Shown: positions 3,080-12,913, counted from the stretch's first letter. The stretch is DNA of 32,000 nt from Oscillatoria salina IIICB1 (GCF_020144665.1 NZ_JAAHBQ010000024.1:8784-40783), one strand, 5' to 3'. Numbers and translations are program-made. Notes: generated by a model from the sequence alone, not told the origin.

Positions 3080-5005
3080 ATGAACAATGAAGACAACTCA
3101 ACCAAACTAGGTGATGATTTTGCTCGAAAAACAACTGAGCGTTTGAGGGCAGATATTTTGGTAGTAGACGATACGCCAGCTAACTTGCGCTTGCTAGTTA
3201 CTTGTTTGCGACAAAAAGGCTACAAAGTGCGACCTGTAACTGATGGGTATGCAGCTTTAAAAGCAGTGCAGCATTTTCAACCTGACTTAATTTTATTAGA
3301 TATTTTGATGCCTAATCTCAACGGTTATCAGGTTTGCGAACAACTGAAAGCTAACCCAGAGACAAAAGAAATTCCGATTATTTTTCTCAGTGCGCTCAAT
3401 GAAGCCTTAGATAAAGCTAAAGGTTTTCAAGTTGGTGGGGTAGATTATATTACTAAACCTTTCCAAATTGAAGAAGTCTTAGCTAGAGTTAAAAATCACA
3501 TTTACCAGCGTTTATTGCAAAAACAATTACGAGAACAAGCCCAAATTCTTCAAAAACAAAATCAACGATTGCAAGCCACAATTCGCGAAAGTAAGTTGTT
3601 AGAAGAAAAGTTGTTGGCTGCGGAGAAAAAAATGCGTGGCGTATTTGAAGCAATGACGGATATTGTGATTGTTGTGAATTTCCAAGCAAACCAAGTTGGT
3701 AACATCGATATTTTACCAACTAATGCAGTTTGCATCGATGCGTCGAGTACGGATATTATTAATCAAACCATCGAACAATTTTTTCAACCAGAAACTGCTA
3801 GCCCGTGGTTGAGTATTTTTCAGCAAGTTTTAACCACCAAGCAAACCAATCATTTAGATTACAGTATTGAAACTGAGGAAAAATTAGTTTGGTTAGCCGC
3901 CGCAATTTCGCCCTTTGACGAAGAATCAGTAATTTTAGCAGCGCGAGATATTAGCGATCGCAAACAAGCAGAATCAGCTTTACGCATCGCCGAACAAAGA
4001 TATCACAGTATTGTCGAAAACGCGATCGACGGCATTTTTCAATCGACTCCTGAAGGACACTATCTTAACGTTAATCCCGCATTAGCCAGGATTTACGGCT
4101 ACAAGTCTCCTCAAGAATTAATTCAAAGTGTGGAGAATATCGATCGGCAAATCTATGTCGATCCTAACTCTCGCGAAGAATTTAAAGCCGCGATCGCCGC
4201 TAATAATTCTGTTTCCGGCTTTGAATCTCAAGTTTATCGTCGAGATGGTAGCATTATCTGGATTTCGGAAACTGCCCGTGCGGTTAAAAATGATACAGGC
4301 AAGCTATTATACTACGAAGGCATTGTTTCCGACATTACCGAACGTAAACTAGCTCAAAAAGCCTTAGAACTGCAAAAAGCACAAACCGAACAACTACTAC
4401 TCAATATTTTACCTCAGCCGATCGCCGATCGCCTGAAAACTGGTGAAAGTCCGATCGCCGATCAATTTGAAGAAGTTAGCGTCCTTTTTGCAGATTTAGT
4501 CGGATTTACCCAATTTTCTGCCCAAAAAAAACCTACTGAGTTACTAGAATTTTTGAATGAAATTTTTTCCGAATTTGACCAACTAGCCTCTAACCACAGC
4601 TTAGAAAAAATCAAAACCATCGGCGACGCATACATGGTAGTTGGTGGTTTACCCATTCCTCGCCCTGATGCTACTGCCGCGATCGCCAAAATGGCACTCG
4701 ATATGCAATCTTTTTTAGCTGATTTTAACCTTAAAAAACAACAAAACTTCAGTTTGCGAATTGGTATTCATACAGGCGCTGTCGTCGCTGGCGTGATTGG
4801 GATGAGTAAGTTTATTTACGATCTTTGGGGCGATACGGTTAATATTGCTTCTCGCATGGAATCTAGCGGAATCCCAGGAAAAATTCAAGTAACTTCTGCT
4901 GTTTACGAACGCTTAAAAACACAATTCAACTTTGAACAACGAGGCAAAATTTCCGTTAAAGGTAAAGGCGAAATGCTTACTTATTTGCTGATCGATCGAC
5001 TTTAA
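3080..5005 (+). CDS. Response-regulator receiver - PAS - class III adenylate/guanylate cyclase
   Basis: 641-aa ORF. Receiver ('ILVVDD...LILLDILMPNLNG...KPF'), coiled coil, PAS ('AEQRYHSIVENAIDGIF...YRRDGSIIW...GIVSDITERK'). Cyclase homology domain motifs 'VSVLFADLVGFT', 'KTIGDAYMVVGG', 'RIGIHTGAVVAGVIG', 'YDLWGDTVNIASRMES'. Confidence 0.9.
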   Translation: MNNEDNSTKLGDDFARKTTERLRADILVVDDTPANLRLLVTCLRQKGYKVRPVTDGYAALKAVQHFQPDLILLDILMPNLNGYQVCEQLKANPETKEIPIIFLSALNEALDKAKGFQVGGVDYITKPFQIEEVLARVKNHIYQRLLQKQLREQAQILQKQNQRLQATIRESKLLEEKLLAAEKKMRGVFEAMTDIVIVVNFQANQVGNIDILPTNAVCIDASSTDIINQTIEQFFQPETASPWLSIFQQVLTTKQTNHLDYSIETEEKLVWLAAAISPFDEESVILAARDISDRKQAESALRIAEQRYHSIVENAIDGIFQSTPEGHYLNVNPALARIYGYKSPQELIQSVENIDRQIYVDPNSREEFKAAIAANNSVSGFESQVYRRDGSIIWISETARAVKNDTGKLLYYEGIVSDITERKLAQKALELQKAQTEQLLLNILPQPIADRLKTGESPIADQFEEVSVLFADLVGFTQFSAQKKPTELLEFLNEIFSEFDQLASNHSLEKIKTIGDAYMVVGGLPIPRPDATAAIAKMALDMQSFLADFNLKKQQNFSLRIGIHTGAVVAGVIGMSKFIYDLWGDTVNIASRMESSGIPGKIQVTSAVYERLKTQFNFEQRGKISVKGKGEMLTYLLIDRL

Positions 5006-5327: not shown

Positions 5328-6458
5328 TTAACGATAAATCCTGGGAACGATCAACTTTCGCAAAACTTGAAGTAACGAATGTAAATAATTTTTCTTAATA
5401 GCTTTGTTTTCAACTACTTGGGCAGCATAAATTAATTTATAATCTTCGTAAGCTACATTAATTCGTGAAGTTGCTTCCGTTGCTTTGGGATGGCGATTTA
5501 GGTCAGGATGCCACTTTCTAATTAATTTTTTATAAGCAGTTTCAACTTGGAGATGGTTAGCATTTGCTTTTACTCCTAAAACTGTCCACCAAGGAGAATT
5601 TTCCTGAAGAATGAGTTCTAATTCTTTGAGATTATGAATAGTAACTTTTGGGATTGTGGTTGAGTTATTTAAACTAGAAATTAGTTGTTCGGCTTGAGGA
5701 AAAAGAACTTTTGCCGGTATATCTGCCACCGGACAAGCAAAAGCACTTGTTAGTTGACAAACTTGACCAGTGAAAGCAGTAGCAGGTGTATCTTCCCAGC
5801 AACAAGCAAAAGGAGACAGCAGAGGAGACATTAATTGGTAAGCTTGACCTTTTAAGGAACTAATAGGTGCATCTTCCCAAGGACAAGCAAAAGGAGACAG
5901 CAGAGGAGACATTAATTGGTAAGCTTGACCTTTTAAGGAACTAATAGGTGCATCTTCCCAAGGACAAGCGAAATCAGACATTAATTGGTAGAATTGACCT
6001 TTTAACGCTGTTGCTGGTGCATCTTCCAAGCGACAAGCCAAAGGAGACATCAAAGGAGACATCAATTGGTAAGCTTGACCTTTTAACGCTGTTGCTGGTG
6101 CATCTTCCAAGCGACAAGCCAAAGGAGACATTAACGCGATCGCCAGTTGGTAGAATTGACCTGTTAACGCTGTTGCTGGTGCATCCTCCCAAAGACAAGC
6201 CAAAGGAGACATTAACGCGATCGCCAGTTGGTAGAATTGACCTGTTAACGCTGTTGCTGGTGCATCCTCTAACCCACAAGCAAACTCAAAAAATTCTCCT
6301 GTAAGTCTCAGCTTTGACTCACCAGTTGAAGTTAATCCTAGTTGAGTGACGATCTTCGGCTGCGATCGCGATCGCCCAGTTAAGGCTACAGATGCACCAC
6401 AAAAACAGAAACCGAATAAGAATAGAGCTAGCAGCAACTCCTCAATTGTGGCAATCAT
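5328..6458 (-). CDS. Membrane-anchored J-domain (DnaJ-like) protein with an internal tandem-repeat region
   Basis: C-terminal J domain 'WWTVLGVKANANHLQVETAYKKLIRKWHPDLN...AYEDYKLIY' with an HPD motif. N-terminal hydrophobic segment 'LLLALFLFGFCFCGASVAL'. About 7 repeats of 'AC(P/R)(W/L)EDAP(A/I)(T/S)(A/S)L(K/T)GQ(A/F)YQL...MSPL'. I prefer the ATG at 6458 (GAGGAG 9 nt upstream) to the TTG at 6485 used in the ORF track. Confidence 0.75.
   Translation of the reverse strand: MIATIEELLLALFLFGFCFCGASVALTGRSRSQPKIVTQLGLTSTGESKLRLTGEFFEFACGLEDAPATALTGQFYQLAIALMSPLACLWEDAPATALTGQFYQLAIALMSPLACRLEDAPATALKGQAYQLMSPLMSPLACRLEDAPATALKGQFYQLMSDFACPWEDAPISSLKGQAYQLMSPLLSPFACPWEDAPISSLKGQAYQLMSPLLSPFACCWEDTPATAFTGQVCQLTSAFACPVADIPAKVLFPQAEQLISSLNNSTTIPKVTIHNLKELELILQENSPWWTVLGVKANANHLQVETAYKKLIRKWHPDLNRHPKATEATSRINVAYEDYKLIYAAQVVENKAIKKNYLHSLLQVLRKLIVPRIYR
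5740..6290 (-). repeat. Coding tandem repeats of 69-81 nt inside the J-domain gene
   Basis: For example, the unit starting at 5827 recurs at 5908 (81 nt period) and at 5977 (69 nt period). Further diverged copies continue to about 6290. All unit lengths are multiples of 3. Confidence 0.85.
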
Positions 6459-6614
6459 TTCGACGCTCCTCTGACTGTTAGCCAAGTTTCCACCCCCAAT
6501 AATTATCGGACACAGTGGGTCAAAAAAGAAGAAATTTGTAACAGAATAGAAACTATTGGGTGATTGGGGAGTGGGGCGATCGGTTACCAGTGAGCAGGTA
6601 AACGACTACCGACA

Positions 6615-7399: not shown

Positions 7400-8215
7400 T
7401 CAAATTTGTACGAATTCCTCTAAAAAACCTCGCTTTCCCAGTCGGGCTATGGAAGCTGCAACTGGTAATCTGGGACTGTCGAGAAGTTGTGCAATTTCGG
7501 TTACATCTGGCTGTCCAAATTGTTGAATTGTTTGTAAAACTTGGCGATCGAATATGACATTGCTAAATTCATTTTTCAGGATTGATTGAATTTGGGTAAT
7601 GACGATATTAGCATTATCAGCAGGGACACATTCACCACCAGTCAGAGTGGCGATCGCGTTAAAGGCTTCGTTCGTCAGGCGATCGCGCACCATAGACAAA
7701 CTATACACCTTCACCCGCTTATCTTCAGCCGTCGCCGTGACCAATTGTACATCTAAACCACTCGGACAACCATCGTGCCAGGAATCGCTACCTTTACCTA
7801 ATTTTACACCTCTATTTGTTTGCATCCATGCAGCAAAACCGTGAGGCGGCGCATCTCCTACCAAAATCGCAAAACGACAGCTATGTTTGCGCCAGCGCAT
7901 TTGCTGACAAGCATCCTCCACACCCCGGTAAACCGCCTCTGCACCATCGCCACCACCATCCGCCCTCAACTGGCGAATATGATTTTGCATCTTATGTAAA
8001 TTATCTGTCAAAGGATAGATGCGAGTAACAAAAGAAGTATCTTGCGGTGGATGATCGCGATATTCCACCAAACCCACTTGGAGATTGATATTATTGTCAG
8101 TGGAGAGAGTAGCGATCGCATTCAAAAGTTGTTGTTGGGCTACCTGAATAAAACTACCCATACTACCTGTAGTATCGACAACAAAACAAATATCAACATA
8201 ATTAAGACCCTTCAT
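7400..8215 (-). CDS. von Willebrand factor type A (vWA) domain protein with a C-terminal winged-helix-like tail
   Basis: MIDAS-type start 'DICFVVDTTGSMGSF', then 'GGGDGAEAV' and 'FAILVGDAPPHG'. Tail 'VTEIAQLLDSPRLPVAASIARLGKRGFLEE'. The ATG at 8215 has GGAGGAGGT 7 nt upstream (the ORF track begins one codon earlier at a TTG). Confidence 0.8.
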   Translation of the reverse strand: MKGLNYVDICFVVDTTGSMGSFIQVAQQQLLNAIATLSTDNNINLQVGLVEYRDHPPQDTSFVTRIYPLTDNLHKMQNHIRQLRADGGGDGAEAVYRGVEDACQQMRWRKHSCRFAILVGDAPPHGFAAWMQTNRGVKLGKGSDSWHDGCPSGLDVQLVTATAEDKRVKVYSLSMVRDRLTNEAFNAIATLTGGECVPADNANIVITQIQSILKNEFSNVIFDRQVLQTIQQFGQPDVTEIAQLLDSPRLPVAASIARLGKRGFLEEFVQI

Positions 8216-8326
8216 CAATTTTACCTCCTCCCAAAATAGATAAGCAAAATCTGATTTAATTAAAGCAAAAAAACAAACACCATTGAGTTAAAATAAAATC
8301 AAAACTAGCTATTTCATCTTACTCTC

Positions 8327-8680: not shown

Positions 8681-10180
<1,500 letters not shown>

Positions 10181-10200
10181 CTAAATATTCTGCTGATTTG

Positions 10201-10253
10201 CCGCGCAAGTTCAAGAAACTTTGCTAACAACATTTCTACTGATTAGGGCGCGA
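10201..10253 (-). ncRNA. Y-RNA-like module a: minimal hairpin with no apical insert
   Basis: Minus-strand RNA 5'-CGCGCCCUAAUCAGUAGAAAUGUUGUUAGCAAAGUUUCUUGAACUUGCGCG-3'. It has the same conserved arms (CGCGCCCUAAUC / AACUUGCGCG) as the larger modules, closed by a ~12-nt loop. Confidence 0.5.
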
Positions 10254-10283
10254 CGACAACTGCCAAAATTATGTAATTTGGTC

Positions 10284-10407
10284 ACTTCGCGCAAGTCAGG
10301 AAAGCTGTTGTTCACACACGGGATTTGAACCCGCAAATGATGGAATCTAAATCCATTGCCTTTTCCATTTGGCTAGTATGTAAGCTTCCCTGGTTAGGGC
10401 GCGAAGT
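10284..10407 (-). ncRNA. Y-RNA-like module b: conserved stem plus a normally ordered tRNA-like insert (anticodon-loop UAG)
   Basis: Terminal helix ACUUCGCGC/GCGCGAAGU. Second helix CAGGGAAGCU/AGCUUUCCUG. Insert: D arm GCC-AAAUGGAAAA-GGC, anticodon arm AUGGA-UUUAGAU-UCCAU, T arm GCGGG-UUCAAAU-CCCGU. Confidence 0.65.
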
Positions 10408-10528
10408 AAAATCAAATTCGGTTGATTAACTAAGTAAAGTTCCGAAACGTTCTAAGCTCAGTTTCGTAAGCTAGATTATCTAAATGATTGTCGATTATTC
10501 ACATTTTAGCTAATTTTTTTAAGCTCAT

Positions 10529-10712
10529 TTTCGCACAAGTTAAAAAAGCTGTCTTAACTTTACGCCCGTCGTACACCAGCTTTCACTAGCACTGGACACG
10601 CAAACTTCTTCTCGTTAGAGAGTGGGAATGATATCGCTAATTCGGTCGCCCGAATATCGCTACCTTAGGAGCGTTATTTTAGTTTGTAAGCTTTTTCGGT
10701 TGGGGTGCGAAA
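10529..10712 (-). ncRNA. Y-RNA-like module c: conserved stem plus a ~140-nt insert resembling 23S rRNA domain IV (H69-H71 region)
   Basis: Terminal helix UUUCGCAC/GUGCGAAA. The insert contains AUAACGCUCCUAAGGUAGCGAUAUUC (complement of 10652-10677). From memory, this matches E. coli 23S AUAACGGUCCUAAGGUAGCGAAAUUC at 24 of 26 positions. A UUCGG-GCGA-CCGAA GNRA hairpin follows. Confidence 0.6.
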
Positions 10713-10804
10713 TAACTCCTTTTTTTAGTTAGTCTTTTCTTCTTTCGTATCCTTCATTTAAAAAATTGGCTATTTCGACCAAAAATAAGTTGGAAAATAA
10801 TTAC

Positions 10805-10924
10805 TTCACGCAAGTTGAAAAAGCTGTTGTTTTATACACAGGAGTCGAACCTGTTACTCTCTGCTTATGAGTCAGATGCTCTACCAATGAGCTAGTATGT
10901 AAGCTTCTTCGGTTAGGGCGCGAA
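10805..10924 (-). ncRNA. Y-RNA-like module d: conserved stem plus a normally ordered tRNA-like insert (anticodon-loop CAU)
   Basis: Terminal helix UUCGCGC/GCGUGAA (one G-U pair). Insert: D arm GCUC-AUUGGUA-GAGC, anticodon arm UCUGA-CUCAUAA-GCAGA, T arm ACAGG-UUCGACU-CCUGU. Confidence 0.65.
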
Positions 10925-11114
10925 TTAAATTTCATTTTTTAGATAACAATCGATTTTGTTTTCATTTCTTCTAGTTTTATTGAAGTTTTTGGGTTTATTT
11001 ACAAATGAGTGAGGCAAGATAAGTTATCTACAAACTCAACTTTTTCTTTGCTTTTAGTTAAACTGAGATTATTCTCAGAATGACCAGGAAAACAAACGAA
11101 TTTTAAATGGTTAG

Positions 11115-11253
11115 CCCGCGCAAGTTTATAAAGCTGTAAACAACGATCGCCGCTCTACCTAACTGAGCTAATTTCCCAACTGGAAAATATAGGATTTGAA
11201 CCTATGTCAAACGAATTCCAAATGTGTGTAAGCTTTACAGATTAGGGCGCGGG
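11115..11253 (-). ncRNA. Y-RNA-like module e: conserved stem plus a circularly permuted tRNA-like insert (YrlA-type)
   Basis: Terminal helix CCCGCGC/GCGCGGG. Insert order on the RNA: T arm AUAGG-UUCAAAU-CCUAU, acceptor 3' strand AUUUUCC, AGUU loop, acceptor 5' strand GGGAAAU, UA, D arm GCUC-AGUUAGGUA-GAGC. Confidence 0.65.
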
Positions 11254-11268
11254 AGATAAAGTTTTAAT

Positions 11269-11748
11269 TTAGTTTTGAGCTTGATAAGCTGCTCGGATTT
11301 TTCTAGATTTTATCTCACCACGTGCTAAACAACGAGGACAACCGCAGGGTTTTCTACCATGTGCAGTGGGGAAATATCGCCAACCAACTATTTGTGGTAA
11401 ATATCTGGCTTTACGAATTTCTCTTGCTTGGATTTTTCGCGGAATAATTACTTCGTAGCCGCTAGAATTTCCTAGTTTCATCAAGAGTGAGTTGGCTTCG
11501 TTTGCCGTCATTTCTTGATGTCTTTGATTGAAGTAACCTACTGAAACTATTTCGTTGTTTGGAATACGAAAGTAAATTCCGTAGATAGTTTTTGTGCCAT
11601 CGCGTTTGAGTTCTCGTAACCATTGATGTGAGGTATAAAAGTTAGGTAAGACTGGCATTGCATAAACGCCGTTGTTACTAATTTTGATACCTGTTCGCAG
11701 AATTGATTTTAACTTTTTTTCTGCGGTTAAATGGACAAAGGTAGTCAT
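11269..11748 (-). CDS. Hypothetical 159-aa protein embedded in the RNA array (possible H-Y-E ADP-ribosyltransferase-fold; Cys cluster and basic tail)
   Basis: Only substantial ORF between 10115 and 12551. ATG at 11748. It has 'FVHLTAEKKLKSILRTGI', 'IYGIYFRIP' and 'GYEVIIPRK', then 'CGCPRCLARGEIKSRKIRAAY'. No family was recognised with certainty. Confidence 0.6.
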   Translation of the reverse strand: MTTFVHLTAEKKLKSILRTGIKISNNGVYAMPVLPNFYTSHQWLRELKRDGTKTIYGIYFRIPNNEIVSVGYFNQRHQEMTANEANSLLMKLGNSSGYEVIIPRKIQAREIRKARYLPQIVGWRYFPTAHGRKPCGCPRCLARGEIKSRKIRAAYQAQN

Positions 11749-11781
11749 GAAATATCTGATTTAAGTGGAAGAAAAGGTTAC

Positions 11782-11900
11782 TTCGCGCAAGTTGAAAAAG
11801 CTGTTGTGTTATACAGGGGAATCGAACCCCTATCACCTGGTTAATAGCCAGTTGCTCTACCAATGAGCTAGTATGTAAGCTTTATCGGTTGGGGCGCGAA
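11782..11900 (-). ncRNA. Y-RNA-like module f: conserved stem plus a normally ordered tRNA-like insert (anticodon-loop AUU)
   Basis: Terminal helix UUCGCGC/GCGCGAA. Insert: D arm GCUC-AUUGGUA-GAGC (identical to module d), anticodon arm CUGG-CUAUUAA-CCAG, T arm AGGGG-UUCGAUU-CCCCU. Confidence 0.65.
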
Positions 11901-11927
11901 TTAACTCGCATGAAGCAAGAAGTTTTT

Positions 11928-12205
11928 GCTAAAATTGATGGAGATTTTTGGCTTTGCTCAGAATGACATTTTTGAGTTTTTTGGTAGTAGCTAAAATTGA
12001 TGGAGATTCTACTCCTACTCGCTTCGCGAGAAGCTTCGCAACGGAGAACGCTACGCGAACGCTTCGCTCAGAATGACAACTTTGAATTTTTTTGAGTTTT
12101 AGCTATGGAGATTCTATTCCTACTCGCTTCGCGAGAAGCTTCGCAACGGAGAACGCTACGCGAACGCTTTGCTCAGAATGACATTTTTGACTTTTTTGGT
12201 AGTAA
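11928..12205. repeat. Three tandem copies of a ~60-110 nt unit; copies 2 and 3 carry a ~52-nt GC-rich miniature element absent from copy 1
   Basis: Copies start at 11928, 11990 and 12102 (GCTA(AAATTGA)TGGAGATT...GCTCAGAATGACA...TTTTGG). Copies 2 and 3 contain CTACTCCTACTCGCTTCGCGAGAAGCTTCGCAACGGAGAACGCTACGCGAAC, where copy 1 has only TTTG. Confidence 0.8.
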
Positions 12206-12256
12206 CTAACATCTATAGTAATAGGAGATGATTTGTGACAAGATTTAATTTTCTGG

Positions 12257-12286
12257 TGTAGAGACGTTGCGTGCAACGTCTCTACA
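12257..12286. repeat. Perfect 14-bp-arm palindrome TGTAGAGACGTTGC-GT-GCAACGTCTCTACA (dispersed cyanobacterial palindromic element type)
   Basis: Read directly. Its translation gives the 'VETLHATSLH' string in the spurious ORF 12103-12297. A truncated relative (TGTAGAGAG...CTCTCTACA) occurs at 26588-26617. Confidence 0.85.
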
Positions 12287-12321
12287 AACAATGACATTTT
12301 TGGTCATAGTTTTAATGTTGA

Positions 12322-12471
12322 TTCCGCACAAGTTAAAAAAGCTGTTTTTACATTTGACGCTCTATCCTTTGAGCTACAACGGCTTAAAATGCCGTTGGTA
12401 GGACTCGAACCTACAACCTCCCGTTTAGCAGACGGAAAATGTTTGTATGCTTCCTCGGTTGGGGTACGGAA
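12322..12471 (-). ncRNA. Y-RNA-like module g: conserved stem plus a circularly permuted tRNA-like insert (YrlA-type)
   Basis: Terminal helix UUCCGUAC/GUGCGGAA (one G-U pair). Connector ACAUUU/AAAUGU. Insert order: hairpin CCGU-CUGCUAA-ACGG, T arm GUAGG-UUCGAGU-CCUAC, acceptor 3' strand CAACGGC, AUUUUAA loop, acceptor 5' strand GCCGUUG (perfect 7 bp), UA, D arm GCUC-AAAGGAUA-GAGC. Confidence 0.7.
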
Positions 12472-12551
12472 ATTAAACTTTTTACTGGTTAAAAAAGATT
12501 GAGAGTAAGCTTGATTTTTTTAGATCTTGCTATCTAAAATTTGGGCTTAAT

Positions 12552-12884: not shown

Positions 12885-12913
12885 ATACTACATAAATAAT
12901 ACAAGAGTGTCAA
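12885..12913 (-). promoter_or_regulatory. Sigma-70-type promoter on the minus strand (TTGACA - 17 nt - TAGTAT)
   Basis: Minus strand: TTGACA is the complement of 12908-12913, the spacer is 17 nt, and TAGTAT is the complement of 12885-12890. It points toward the 66-aa ORF and the RNA array. Confidence 0.5.

Follow-up and report, generated by a model that had tools for sequence, protein, structure and literature searches.

A 32,000 nt stretch of Oscillatoria salina IIICB1 (GCF_020144665.1 NZ_JAAHBQ010000024.1:8784-40783), hereafter the window, contained an array of Y-type RNAs upstream of a gene for a Ro60-like protein (Table 1). The locus was read in this way because the downstream protein has a predicted Ro60 structure and because two of the units, e and g, are YrlA-like. 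Three other units, b, d and f, carried complete tRNA cloverleaves with intact anticodon loops. They are non-decoding mimics of tRNA whose acceptor end connects them to the Ro-binding stem. We suggest, with a probability of roughly 60%, that these three are Y-type RNAs of the downstream divergent Ro60, in which the anticodon head docks the Ro60 ring on a partner.

Table 1. Features of the array and its neighbourhood in the window (R1, covariance model of the b/d/f family).
Feature	Position	Strand	Evidence or remark
Divergent Ro60-like gene, 477 aa	8681..10114	-	Downstream of array; predicted fold
Unit a, short hairpin CGCGCCCUAAUC...AACUUGCGCG	10200..10257	-	Immediately upstream of Ro60-like gene; sequence reading
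Unit b, complete Y-type module (9-bp outer stem, internal loop CCUAACC/ACUU, inner stem, tRNA head)	10284..10407	-	ARAGORN; Rfam tRNA 49.0 bits; R1 126 bits; MFE fold z = -4.7
Unit b, tRNA head	10310-10382	-	ARAGORN tRNA-Leu(tag); anticodon loop UUUAGAU 10345-10351; UAG 10347-10349
Unit c, common scaffold and head resembling 23S rRNA helices 69-71	10528..10713	-	
Unit d, complete Y-type module	10803..10926	-	ARAGORN; Rfam tRNA 47.5 bits; R1 123 bits
Unit d, tRNA head	10829-10901	-	ARAGORN tRNA-Met(cat); anticodon loop CUCAUAA 10865-10871; CAU 10867-10869
Unit e, common scaffold and permuted YrlA-type head (T arm, hairpin, D arm)	11113..11255	-	
ORF159, 159 aa, between units f and e	11269..11748	-	
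Unit f, complete Y-type module	11780..11902	-	ARAGORN; Rfam tRNA 49.1 bits; R1 119.8 bits
Unit f, tRNA head	11808-11878	-	ARAGORN tRNA-Asn(att); anticodon loop CUAUUAA 11841-11847; AUU 11843-11845
Unit g, common scaffold and permuted YrlA-type head	12321..12472	-	R1 39.5 bits

The heads of b, d and f followed the normal tRNA order (acceptor, D, anticodon, variable, T, acceptor), and ARAGORN made no further tRNA call anywhere in the 32 kb. Their matches to the Rfam tRNA model RF00005 had E values of about 1e-7 (gathering score 29). The minus-strand cloverleaf details given in the original prediction were all present at the coordinates given: the anticodon arms (AUGGA-UUUAGAU-UCCAU in b, UCUGA-CUCAUAA-GCAGA in d and CUGG-CUAUUAA-CCAG in f), the T loops (UUCAAAU, UUCGACU and UUCGAUU, respectively) and the GG of each D loop. 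The acceptor 5′ strand was UACAUAC in all three. It had been said to form five or six of seven pairs, which was correct for b (3′ strand GUGUGAA, 6/7) and d (GUAUAAA, 5/7), while f was slightly worse (GUAUAAC, 4/7). As had also been claimed, no CCA was encoded after the heads, which were followed by CAAC or ACAAC and then by the inner stem. In the MFE folds both scaffold stems were present, as were the three arms (D, anticodon and T); the A/U-rich acceptor stem was missing. The near identity of the stems of d and f, with different anticodon and T arms, was confirmed as well: 5 of 85 positions differed in the scaffold, acceptor, D arm and junction, against 15 of 39 in the anticodon arm, variable loop and T arm. 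Unit b had a class I body of 73 nt with a 5-nt variable loop, bearing the anticodon loop of a tRNA-Leu(UAG). Unit f had a loop that departs from the natural tRNA-Asn loop, CUGUUAA, by an A in place of G34; CUGUUAA was also the loop of genuine tRNA-Asn in the locus flanks.

The 5′ motif of the scaffold occurred six times from 10379 to 12468 (2.1 kb), each time on the minus strand, against 0 expected, and the 14-mer GCTTACATACTAGC in three copies in the window against 0.01 expected. Units e and c were matched by R1 through this scaffold (44 and 38.3 bits). Units e and g matched the Rfam YrlA model RF02553 over its full length, with 37.8 bits (E = 3e-7) and 32.1 bits (E = 1.8e-4), both below the gathering score of 69. 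The head of unit c matched the 23S rRNA gene by blastn in 5426 of 5426 E. coli genomes, at 28 of 32 bases. Unit a, which gave no R1 match at E <= 0.01, is probably a minimal Y-type RNA, a tentative assignment made from its sequence. ORF159 was ruled out as a component of the system, being present solely in a close relative (L001); it had no match in Pfam, NCBIfam or PADLOC. A promoter scan gave one good -35/-10 match upstream of the array (12885-12913, minus strand), and a terminator scan found no minus-strand terminators.

The 477-aa protein comprised a helical ring and a vWA domain in which the D-x-S-x-S motif is intact. Its AlphaFold2 model (pLDDT 85) had the full-length Ro60 ring and vWA domain, and the top 13 Foldseek matches in the PDB were all Ro60, aligned over the full length (E from 3e-11 to 5e-9, TM 0.58-0.68). 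It had no TROVE match in Pfam or NCBIfam, and a sequence search of the PDB gave a weak match to phage Ro60 (E = 0.002), with no better than E = 1e-3 in a profile search. Its identification rests on the predicted fold, by which it is a highly divergent Ro60 of full length and presumably the partner of the array RNAs. The protein was 73-82% identical across cyanobacterial orders, and the surroundings of the locus were housekeeping genes. PADLOC found no defence-system match for it, for the neighbouring vWA protein, for a DnaJ-domain protein or for two ORFs within other arrays. The Ro60 family found here is large and very conserved, yet it was missed by domain searches, and surveys anchored on TROVE would have overlooked it together with its RNAs.

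A search with R1, run on 29 genomes and some 80 metagenome contigs, recovered 157 modules of the b/d/f type, 149 of them distinct. Of the 157, 38 full modules came from the protein-found loci and the window, and the other 119 from 79 metagenome contigs. The 29 genome loci had been found through the Ro60-like protein and the 79 contigs through an RNA 16-mer alone, so that in the 119 metagenome modules the invariance at positions 1-11 is partly a product of the search pattern; UACAUAC was also invariant across the loci found through the protein. The modules were linked to the Ro60-like gene from either starting point. In 18 of the 29 protein-found genome loci, ARAGORN placed tRNA-like calls upstream of the gene and on its strand. 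Downstream sequence of 3 kb or more was present in 29 of the RNA-anchored contigs; 25 of these had the gene on the same strand, starting 96-1856 nt downstream, and a partial, more divergent match in L053 brings the count to about 26 of 29. A scan of viral contigs gave five 16-mer matches and no full module, with ordinary phage tRNAs only, in L154. Carriage by phages is not supported, since the viral contigs lacked a full module.

In the training set 93.4% of cells were paired, with compensatory changes in 15 pairs. In an independent set of 110 distinct sequences 93.1% were paired and 29 of 39 pairs had compensatory changes, values reached by none of 500 shuffles. Compensatory changes affected 9/9 pairs of the outer stem and 5/9 of the inner stem, and every helix covaried except the acceptor stem. 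Both strands of the latter were nearly invariant, so covariation gives no signal on their pairing. The acceptor stem was A/U-rich, with at most 6/7 pairs in 124 of 135 modules and a conserved A2·A71 mismatch in 105 of 135, and the same UACAUAC strand served more than 30 anticodons. The internal loop was conserved in sequence (CCYAAYC opposite AACUU), and CGCGCC and ACUUGCG were invariant parts of the scaffold. Loss of the cloverleaf in homologous loci had been named beforehand as evidence against the proposal; in these loci the cloverleaf was conserved and covaried.

The anticodon arm and the variable loop were the most variable parts of the modules and, within the loop, it was the triplet that varied, which supports the cassette-style diversification originally proposed. 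Position 32 was a pyrimidine in 94% of the loops, position 33 was U in 92% and position 37 a purine in 100%. The triplet varied almost freely (entropy of 1.7-1.9 bits at positions 34-36). A single stem, CUUGA/UCAAG, bore 20 different loops. Some tandem neighbours differed solely in the triplet, and close Coleofasciculus strains had the loops CUUGAAA, CUGGAAA and CGGUAAA in otherwise identical modules. Because the 32, 33 and 37 signature was kept while the triplet varied, and because one stem carried so many loops, we take the anticodon loop to be the displayed element; the triplet appears to be under selection. A34 was found in 21 of 124 triplets and the stop-reading anticodons CUA, UUA and UCA in 9, and the anticodon loop had 6 nt in ten modules. 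The UAG-type loop UUUAGGY was found in many genera on covarying stems, CAU modules had an unchanged array position in L022, L020, L062 and L144, and the 12 AUU modules were on at least 5 different covarying stems. UUUAGGY, CUCAUAA and CUAUUAA were all kept across orders, in a conserved array order. In other genomes, short gene-proximal modules carried a bare anticodon-like stem-loop on the common scaffold, and an L7/L12 paralogue was encoded in 5 of 29 arrays. Most loops also contained a stop-codon trinucleotide, and complementary anticodon pairs (UAG/CUA, UAA/UUA) occurred; both are likely due to chance, given the composition of natural anticodon loops.

The modules each form a hairpin of about 124 nt, its ends paired into the 9-bp outer stem. 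The conserved internal loop, the putative Ro60-binding site, is followed by the inner stem of 9 bp and by a tRNA in normal order on the weak, invariant acceptor stem UACAUAC/GUAUGAA with its A2·A71 mismatch. A bulge of 4-6 nt, NCAAC, takes the place of the discriminator base and CCA. With the acceptor end buried in this way, aminoacylation or decoding would be precluded unless the RNA is processed, and the exposed parts would be the elbow and, above all, the canonical anticodon stem-loop. We infer that the RNAs bind the Ro60-like protein and stay intact, with the stem retained in the mature form. The head could then serve the Y RNA as its effector or targeting module, docking the ring and any cooperating nuclease onto a reader of anticodon arms, and the triplet may set the specificity.

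At the level of speculation, we look for this partner first in the translation apparatus, with the decoding region of the small ribosomal subunit as the candidate. It was favoured because of the head resembling 23S helices 69-71, the L7/L12 paralogue and the role of Ro60 in rRNA metabolism in Deinococcus radiodurans. In the ribosome, 23S helices 69-71 lie at the subunit interface beside the decoding site, and bacterial Ro60 acts in rRNA decay and maturation in D. radiodurans. Several points speak against docking on the ribosome: an anticodon stem-loop needs a matching codon for good binding to the 30S P or A site, the large subunit would be in the way of a stem of about 18 bp with a 54-kDa ring, and the three G-C pairs of the initiator anticodon stem were missing from the CAU module. 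The computed evidence is equally compatible with the ribosome and with other readers of anticodon arms. As a broader and distinctly tentative picture, cyanobacteria may possess a Ro60 system whose Y RNA heads copy parts of the translation apparatus and steer the ring to the decoding region or to its attackers. Such a system, invisible to Pfam TROVE, would be widespread, with arrays of up to nine or more Y RNAs. Their heads would be interchangeable and make up one repertoire of whole tRNAs or bare anticodon stem-loops with a programmable triplet, permuted elbows and 23S helices 69-71, sometimes with an L7/L12 paralogue.

A different function for the heads, unlikely in our view but deserving serious attention, is that of bait: sacrificial or inhibitory mimics of the targets of toxin ribonucleases (anticodon loops and 23S H69-H71). 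Cleavage or sequestration at these mimics would protect real tRNAs and rRNA or would switch the Ro60-like particle to signalling or repairing damage. Toxins attack helix/loop 70 of 23S rRNA as well as many anticodon loops, and Salmonella has rsr and yrlA within the operon for RNA repair by RtcB, whose inducers are tRNA fragments; both facts fit this explanation. The change of the triplet alone between tandem duplicates and between Coleofasciculus strains is what an arms race would be expected to leave. The loops copied natural ones including positions 32, 37 and 38, with UUUAGGU as in E. coli leuW and with CUCUUAA and CUGUCAC matching genuine tRNA loops in the flanks. Loops of the Asn, Asp and Tyr families were often altered at position 33 or 34 (AUU 12 times against GUU twice; AUC; G33 in GUA), a change that would give an uncleavable competitor for nucleases or enzymes acting on G34-U35. 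Against this, the Ro60-like protein is very conserved across orders, the surrounding genes are housekeeping genes, PADLOC found no match and the viral contigs had no full module. The UAG, CAU and AUU modules were stable across orders rather than fast-evolving, and AUU, stop-reading anticodons and 6-nt loops resemble no real cellular tRNA, which would be odd for bait.

It is less probable still that the heads tether enzymes, recruiting tRNA-modifying or tRNA-processing enzymes, or the anticodon-binding domains of synthetases, to the Ro60-like ring. Known Y RNAs do tether a protein in a similar manner, as Yrn1 of D. radiodurans tethers Ro60 to PNPase (PMC4201824). YrlA is modified by TruB and DusA in S. 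Typhimurium and cut by RNase P in M. smegmatis (PMC4201824), so that tRNA enzymes do recognise Y RNA heads. The determinants of position-37 enzymes were also kept (G36-G37 in UAG loops, U36-A37 or A36-A37 in others). However, more than 30 triplets would require many partners, the commonest anticodons (UAG, UGA and CAA) are not read by the synthetases of the tRNAs that bear them, and the A34 and G33 variants destroy the U33-G34-U35 motif required by the queuine-inserting enzyme.

That the modules are real tRNA genes, with leader and trailer removed by RNase P and RNase Z, CCA added and products that translate, is very improbable. The genuine tRNAs used for comparison were those in the locus flanks and E. 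coli leuW. Like genuine bacterial tRNAs, the modules had a cloverleaf, a 5-bp anticodon stem and natural 7-nt loops. They were above threshold in both tRNA finders and carried the canonical U8, A14, G18G19, T loop (UUCRANY) and anticodon-loop signature. Since many tRNA genes of cyanobacteria do without an encoded CCA, the lack of one here is no proof. Furthermore, YrlA of M. smegmatis is a substrate of RNase P and gains CCA in vivo (PMC4201824). However, the genuine flank tRNAs had 7/7 G/C-rich acceptor stems and Rfam scores of 67-73 bits, some 20 bits above the modules (40-54 bits), and one invariant, mismatched acceptor stem for more than 30 anticodons cannot be reconciled with separate identities for aminoacylation. 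Leu, Ser and Tyr anticodons were placed on short class I bodies: most UGA, GGA and GUA modules had 73-77 nt, a long variable arm was found in three modules (e.g. L002:4421), and E. coli leuW, a tRNA-Leu(UAG), has 85 nt and a long variable arm against the 73 nt of unit b. Amber, ochre and opal suppressor anticodons and A34 were recurrent, and the AUU of unit f falls outside the standard decoding set. The flanking stems and internal loop were conserved, covarying and common to non-tRNA heads, and the ends of the tRNA were buried, with no unpaired leader nucleotide between the inner stem and the acceptor stem on the 5′ strand. Because the acceptor stem is mismatched and invariant, the anticodons are non-standard and ill-fitted to their bodies and the scores are below those of genuine tRNAs, we regard the modules as non-decoding mimics, in agreement with the original view that they are not tRNA genes. 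Mismatched acceptor stems and non-standard anticodons are also typical of decaying tRNA pseudogenes or tRNA-derived repeats without a function of their own, but this origin is next to negligible in the face of compensatory changes in every arm across the 110 independent sequences, the constraint on positions 33 and 37, the tight linkage to one gene in several phyla and the conserved array order.

On the favoured reading, as Ro60-docking Y RNAs, units b, d and f would extend the tRNA mimicry of bacterial Y RNAs from the acceptor/T/D side to a whole tRNA with a functional-looking anticodon loop. They would also offer a concrete handle on a long-open question, the binding partners of the tRNA-like domains of Y RNAs. 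If the broader and more tentative picture, of heads that steer the ring to the decoding region or to its attackers, is true, they would be the first natural tRNA used as a triplet-addressed targeting handle and not as a decoder. The tRNA finders called the modules tRNA-Leu, tRNA-Met and tRNA-Asn(AUU), and elsewhere suppressor or 'Pyl' tRNAs, so that cyanobacterial annotations and studies of tRNA repertoires are likely contaminated by them. A stable scaffold that presents an arbitrary anticodon loop is, in addition, a ready natural design for RNA tools.

In YrlA (Chen et al. 2014, PMC4201824) the T arm comes first, followed by an acceptor-like hairpin and the D arm; the Ro stem is attached at the side of the anticodon stem, and an anticodon loop is missing, as the original prediction had correctly stated. 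A crystal structure of YrlA has been reported (bioRxiv 10.1101/312249). Units e and g are of this type and fit the YrlA model on the scaffold common to b, d and f. The array also resembles YrlA in the adjacent Ro60 gene, in a long stem formed from the 5′ and 3′ ends and in having no free CCA, and the heads of b, d and f are likewise tRNA mimics with canonical D and T arms. Unlike the circularly permuted YrlA, however, b, d and f keep the normal order, are joined via the acceptor end and show a full anticodon arm and variable loop. Their partner protein is too divergent for Pfam TROVE, and they gave no match to RF02553 even at E <= 5. Two of the features by which Y RNAs are recognised were seen here, an adjoining gene with a Ro60 fold and a basal stem from the 5′ and 3′ ends with a conserved internal loop. 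Described bacterial Y RNAs carry the motif GNCGAAN0-1G in the 5′ strand of their Ro60-binding stem, whereas the present scaffold has no invariant copy: CCGAAGAAG in d and CCGAAAAAG in c resemble it, but CCAGGGAAG in b and UCUGUAAAG in e do not.

The tmRNA and viral tRNA-like structures are likewise cases of tRNA mimicry within a larger RNA, but these have a free, aminoacylatable CCA end and no true anticodon loop, the reverse of b, d and f. A limited full-text literature search found no description of a Y RNA with a whole-tRNA head and an intact anticodon loop. Chen et al. 2014 (PMC4201824) offer a partial precedent in their model of Yrn1 from D. radiodurans, where the orientation is the same and the 'anticodon arm' has 5 bp and a loop of 6 nt. 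The originally proposed difference in architecture held with respect to YrlA, to which the topology is opposite. Compared by description, Yrn1 and the b/d/f modules both have a D-like element, an anticodon-like arm and a T arm enclosed by the Ro60-binding stem, and 6-nt loops also occurred in ten modules of the family. Yrn1 shows no evident D arm and lacks a variable region, and no dihydrouridine was detected in it (PMC4201824), whereas in b, d and f the D arm and variable loop are complete. Their cloverleaf also passes the tRNA finders, and their loop combines a diversified triplet with the complete Y32-U33-NNN-R37 signature. Units b, d and f are therefore the complete version of the topology tentatively modelled for Yrn1, opposite to that of YrlA.

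The window carries three complete cloverleaves, units b, d and f, on its minus strand within 10284-11902. ARAGORN called each of them as a tRNA and made no further call in the whole 32-kb window, and all three passed the gathering score of 29 of the Rfam tRNA model (47.5-49.1 bits). The arms, loops and acceptor strands described in the original prediction were present as written, which confirmed the observation, and its structural interpretation was supported. The acceptor pairing it gave, 5-6 of 7 positions, held for units b and d, but unit f paired at only 4 of 7. The cloverleaves shared their flanks: CGCGCCCYAACC-N6-GCU followed by UACAUAC on the 5′ side, and a GUAUGAA-like strand, NCAAC and AGCUUU-N4-ACUUGCGCG on the 3′ side. 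For a 14-mer across the junction, 0.01 copies were expected in the window and three were present. The 5′ motif of the scaffold (an outer stem, internal loop and inner stem carrying the head domain) occurred six times, always on the minus strand (10379-12468), where none was expected. Single-sequence folding (z = -4.7, -2.1 and -3.1 for b, d and f) gave the D, anticodon and T arms as well as both scaffold stems; the A/U-rich acceptor stem was not recovered in this way.

A 477-aa ORF starts 86 nt beyond the end of the array. Neither Pfam nor NCBIfam detected a TROVE domain in its product, only a weak vWA signal being found, and the sole match in a PDB sequence search was a Thermus phage Ro60 (E = 0.002). 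The AlphaFold2 model (pLDDT 85, pTM 0.77) matched Ro60 structures over its full length, and the best 13 Foldseek matches in the PDB were all Ro60, from Xenopus, human, D. radiodurans and phage (E 3e-11 to 5e-9, TM 0.58-0.68, identity 13-16%). The protein has about 3000 homologues. It is identical to an Oscillatoria salina entry labelled "vWA domain-containing protein", shows 73-82% identity across many cyanobacterial orders and has relatives in Acidobacteriota and Planctomycetota. Units e and g matched the Rfam YrlA model, both below its gathering score of 69. They have the scaffold of b, d and f, with a permuted head order of T arm, hairpin and D arm. The predicted Ro60 fold of the protein, together with YrlA-like units on a common scaffold, indicates that six or seven Y-type RNA genes form an array here, before a gene for a divergent Ro60. 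Units b, d and f have the scaffold of bona fide YrlA-like units with a different head.

Immediately downstream, the Ro60-like gene is followed by a gene for a stand-alone vWA protein, and then comes a protein with a DnaJ domain at its C terminus; the vWA gene is likewise downstream in L017, L020 and L024. At its first codons (AUGAAUACAGCAGAACGUGACUUACG) the Ro60-like ORF looks like the 3′ scaffold motif ACAGC-N7-ACUUGCG; this holds for nearly all loci (at ~6007 in most) and could reflect protein-coding constraint or a site at which the protein binds its own mRNA. ORF159 (159 aa), inserted between units f and e, has no family match; it carries CGCPRC as a C-terminal motif and is otherwise present only in the closest relative, L001. 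Several copies of a ~90-nt repeat (GUCAUUCUGAGC[A/G]AAGCGUUCGCGUAGCGUUCUCCGUUGCGAAGC...) between units g and f look like an insertion of a cyanobacterial miniature repeat element.

A protein-anchored search with one genome per species yielded 29 loci, 18 of which had tRNA-like ARAGORN calls upstream of the Ro60-like gene on the same strand. In an alignment of 32 modules with the helices written out (outer, inner, acceptor, D, anticodon and T), 93.4% of cells paired and compensatory changes occurred in 15 pairs, with covariation at 5 of 5 pairs of the anticodon stem and 3 of 5 of the T stem. The acceptor stem showed no covariation in this alignment because it is invariant and because 27 of 31 sequences have A·A mismatched at 2:71. 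R1, a covariance model of this alignment, scored full modules of the protein-anchored loci at 82-136 bits, apart from one divergent copy at 64 bits (L019:5829). Other head types matched through the scaffold only (at most 64 bits), and genuine tRNAs in the locus flanks matched model positions 26-98 only. As an independent sample, metagenome contigs were scanned for the 16-mer AAGCTTACATACTAGC and the matches filtered with R1, which gave 119 further full modules on 79 contigs; by the same scan and filter, viral contigs gave no full module. Downstream sequence of at least 3 kb was available for 29 metagenome contigs; in 25 of these the Ro60-like gene, on the same strand, started 96-1856 nt downstream, and a further contig (L053) had a partial, more divergent match. 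In a set of 110 distinct sequences, none used in building R1, 93.1% of cells paired and compensatory changes occurred in 29 of 39 pairs, values reached by 0 of 500 shuffles. The cloverleaf is thus conserved in homologous loci, as are the module anatomy and its linkage to a Ro60-fold protein. The largest array seen, from a metagenome, had nine full tRNA-headed modules on one strand, with called triplets CAA, GUC, AUU, GUC, UUA, CAG and CAU and one module uncalled. In an acidobacterial locus, two tRNA-headed modules lay downstream, not upstream, of the Ro60-like gene.

The scaffold cores CGCGCC, AAGCU, GCUUU and ACUUGCG, tRNA positions 1-11 (UACAUAC-UA-GC) and the T-arm core were invariant in the protein-anchored loci; the invariance of positions 1-11 counts for genome loci only, since the search pattern fixed them in the metagenome set. 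The anticodon arm and variable loop varied most. Among 83 distinct anticodon arms, position 32 was a pyrimidine in 94%, 33 was U in 92% and 37 was a purine in 100%, while positions 34-36 had 1.7-1.9 bits of entropy. A single stem, CUUGA/UCAAG, carried 20 different loops. Tandem neighbours differed in the triplet alone (e.g. CUGUCAC beside CUUUAAC in L057, CUAUCAC beside CUUGAAC in L017, and a further example, CUUCCAC, in L125), and the otherwise near-identical type-ii modules of close Coleofasciculus genomes had CUUGAAA, CUGGAAA or CGGUAAA. This comparison of homologous arrays supports the cassette-style diversification proposed originally.

Three loop types were stable across orders on covarying stems: UUUAGGY (19 UAG modules), CUCAUAA (9 modules) and CUAUUAA or CUAUUAC (12 modules). 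Their array order was kept as X, CAU, UAG, with UAG closest to the gene, and units f, d and b are exactly these three types. E. coli tRNA-Leu(UAG) has the loop UUUAGGU, and genuine tRNAs flanking the loci have CUCUUAA (Lys), CUGUCAC (Asp) and CUGUUAA (Asn). The unit f loop, CUAUUAA, differs from the Asn loop by an A in place of G34, and AUU modules outnumbered GUU modules 12 to 2. Judging from these identities, the module loops copy natural anticodon loops. Since short gene-proximal modules in other genomes carry a bare 4-5-bp anticodon-like stem-loop on the same scaffold (e.g. UUACC-CUGUCAC-GGUAA; loops include CUGUCAC, CUGCCAC, CUGUAAA, CUUUUAA and CUUCCAC), the displayed element is the anticodon stem-loop.

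Other heads were found on the same scaffold. In unit c, AUAACGCUCCUAAGGUAGCGA shared 28 of 32 bases with the 23S gene of E. coli in every one of 5426 genomes, and homologues in six other loci kept GUAACUAUAACGGUC.UAAGGUAGCGA more faithfully than the window did. Such an rRNA-mimicking Y RNA head appears to be undescribed. A paralogue of ribosomal protein L7/L12 (129 aa, both Pfam domains, E = 4e-24 and 8e-12) was encoded in 5 of the 29 arrays, none of them the window, with tRNA-headed modules on one side and the Ro60-like gene on the other. A further head type of ~130 nt had an anticodon-like arm (e.g. GUCUGA-CUUAAAC-UCAGAU), a T arm and a G/C-rich hairpin, and lacked a D arm. Some YrlA-like heads (L006:4764-4935) had a ~24-nt insertion in the T loop.

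Coordinates of array features in the window and in homologous loci
Feature	Location	Strand	Identification
Unit b cloverleaf	10310-10382	-	ARAGORN tRNA-Leu(tag); Rfam tRNA 49.0 bits
Unit d cloverleaf	10829-10901	-	ARAGORN tRNA-Met(cat); Rfam tRNA 47.5 bits
Unit f cloverleaf	11808-11878	-	ARAGORN tRNA-Asn(att); Rfam tRNA 49.1 bits
Unit c	10528-10713	-	Y scaffold; head like 23S rRNA helices 69-71
Unit e	11113-11255	-	Rfam YrlA, full model, 37.8 bits, E = 3e-7
Unit g	12321-12472	-	Rfam YrlA, 32.1 bits
Ro60-like ORF	8681-10114	-	477 aa
First codons of Ro60-like ORF	10089-10114	-	
Stand-alone vWA protein	7400-8218	-	
DnaJ-domain protein	5328-6485	-	
ORF159	11269-11748	-	
~90-nt repeat	11950-12300	-	
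Unit c homologues	L002:4661-4846, L017:2054-2242, L018:4409-4592, L020:3134-3319, L022:3388-3574, L001:5401-5586		
L7/L12 paralogue	L006:5275, L008:23-412, L020:4787, L022:4824, L027:5215		
~130-nt head type	L006:4542-4673, L011:2977-3108, L012:3040-3171, L027:4403-4531, L004:5393-5524		
Short bare stem-loop modules	L006:5865-5942, L008:613-690, L011:4056-4134, L012:4429-4507, L027:5863-5941, L009:5779-5869, L004:5719-5795, L022:5865-5938		
Largest array	L148:224-4652		eight of nine modules at 3202-4652
Acidobacteriota modules	L026:7701-8017		

In known Ro60/Y RNA systems the RNA holds Ro60 with its basal stem and an effector with a second module (PMC4201824, 10.1101/312249, PMC12135203). By analogy, the module scaffold would bind the Ro60-like ring and the head would be an effector or targeting module. 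Because the head joins at its acceptor end, the elbow and anticodon arm would be exposed in b/d/f-type modules. The partner may be something that reads anticodon stem-loops, and our tentative first choice is the small ribosomal subunit at its decoding region, because unit c, like its homologues, is a mimic of 23S helices 69-71, because some arrays encode an L7/L12 paralogue and because bacterial Ro60 acts on rRNA. A serious rival is that the modules are bait or decoys against anticodon- and rRNA-targeting ribonucleases. Diversification of the triplet alone fits such a role, as do the position 33 and 34 changes of Asn/Asp/Tyr-type loops, but the strong conservation of the Ro60-like protein, the housekeeping gene surroundings, the lack of PADLOC matches and the loops without a real tRNA counterpart fit it less well.

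Decoding tRNAs are a poor description of these modules. More than 30 anticodons are served by one weak acceptor stem, with at most 6 of 7 pairs in 124 of 135 modules and A2·A71 in 105. On the 5′ strand the inner stem runs into the acceptor without an unpaired nucleotide, and on the 3′ strand a 4-6-nt bulge, NCAAC, takes the place of the discriminator and CCA. The modules scored 40-54 bits with the tRNA model, whereas genuine tRNAs of the same loci scored 67-73 bits. Leu, Ser and Tyr anticodons mostly sit on class I bodies of 72-77 nt. Of 124 triplets, 21 have A34 and nine are stop-reading (CUA, UUA or UCA), and ten modules have 6-nt anticodon loops. The modules are thus non-tRNA in character by sequence, in agreement with the earlier view that they are not tRNA genes, and are probably miscalled as such. 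They may be processed by RNase P and RNase Z, and M. smegmatis YrlA is cut by RNase P (PMC4201824), but the scaffold covaries and also serves non-tRNA heads, which argues that stem and head together form the mature unit.

Among known RNAs, the closest family to these Y-type modules is YrlA, with which they have the genomic logic in common and, as units e and g suggest, also the scaffold. Unlike YrlA, units b, d and f lack the defining permuted order of T arm, hairpin and D arm (PMC4201824) and do not match the Rfam YrlA model. YrlA exposes its acceptor/T side, and b, d and f are its mirror image; the array has both kinds, units e and g being of the YrlA architecture described in the original prediction. 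D. radiodurans Yrn1, as modelled by Chen et al., has the same orientation as b, d and f, with a 5-bp "anticodon arm" and a 6-nt loop (PMC4201824). It has no variable region and no clear D arm, and is a partial precedent rather than an equivalent. A full-text literature search, in which reviews were partly covered, turned up neither a description of this cyanobacterial Ro60 family nor one of Y RNAs whose tRNA heads are in normal order and bear an anticodon. The b/d/f-type family is large, has strong covariation support and is apparently unannotated, and it makes the question of what the tRNA-like domains of Y RNAs bind directly testable.
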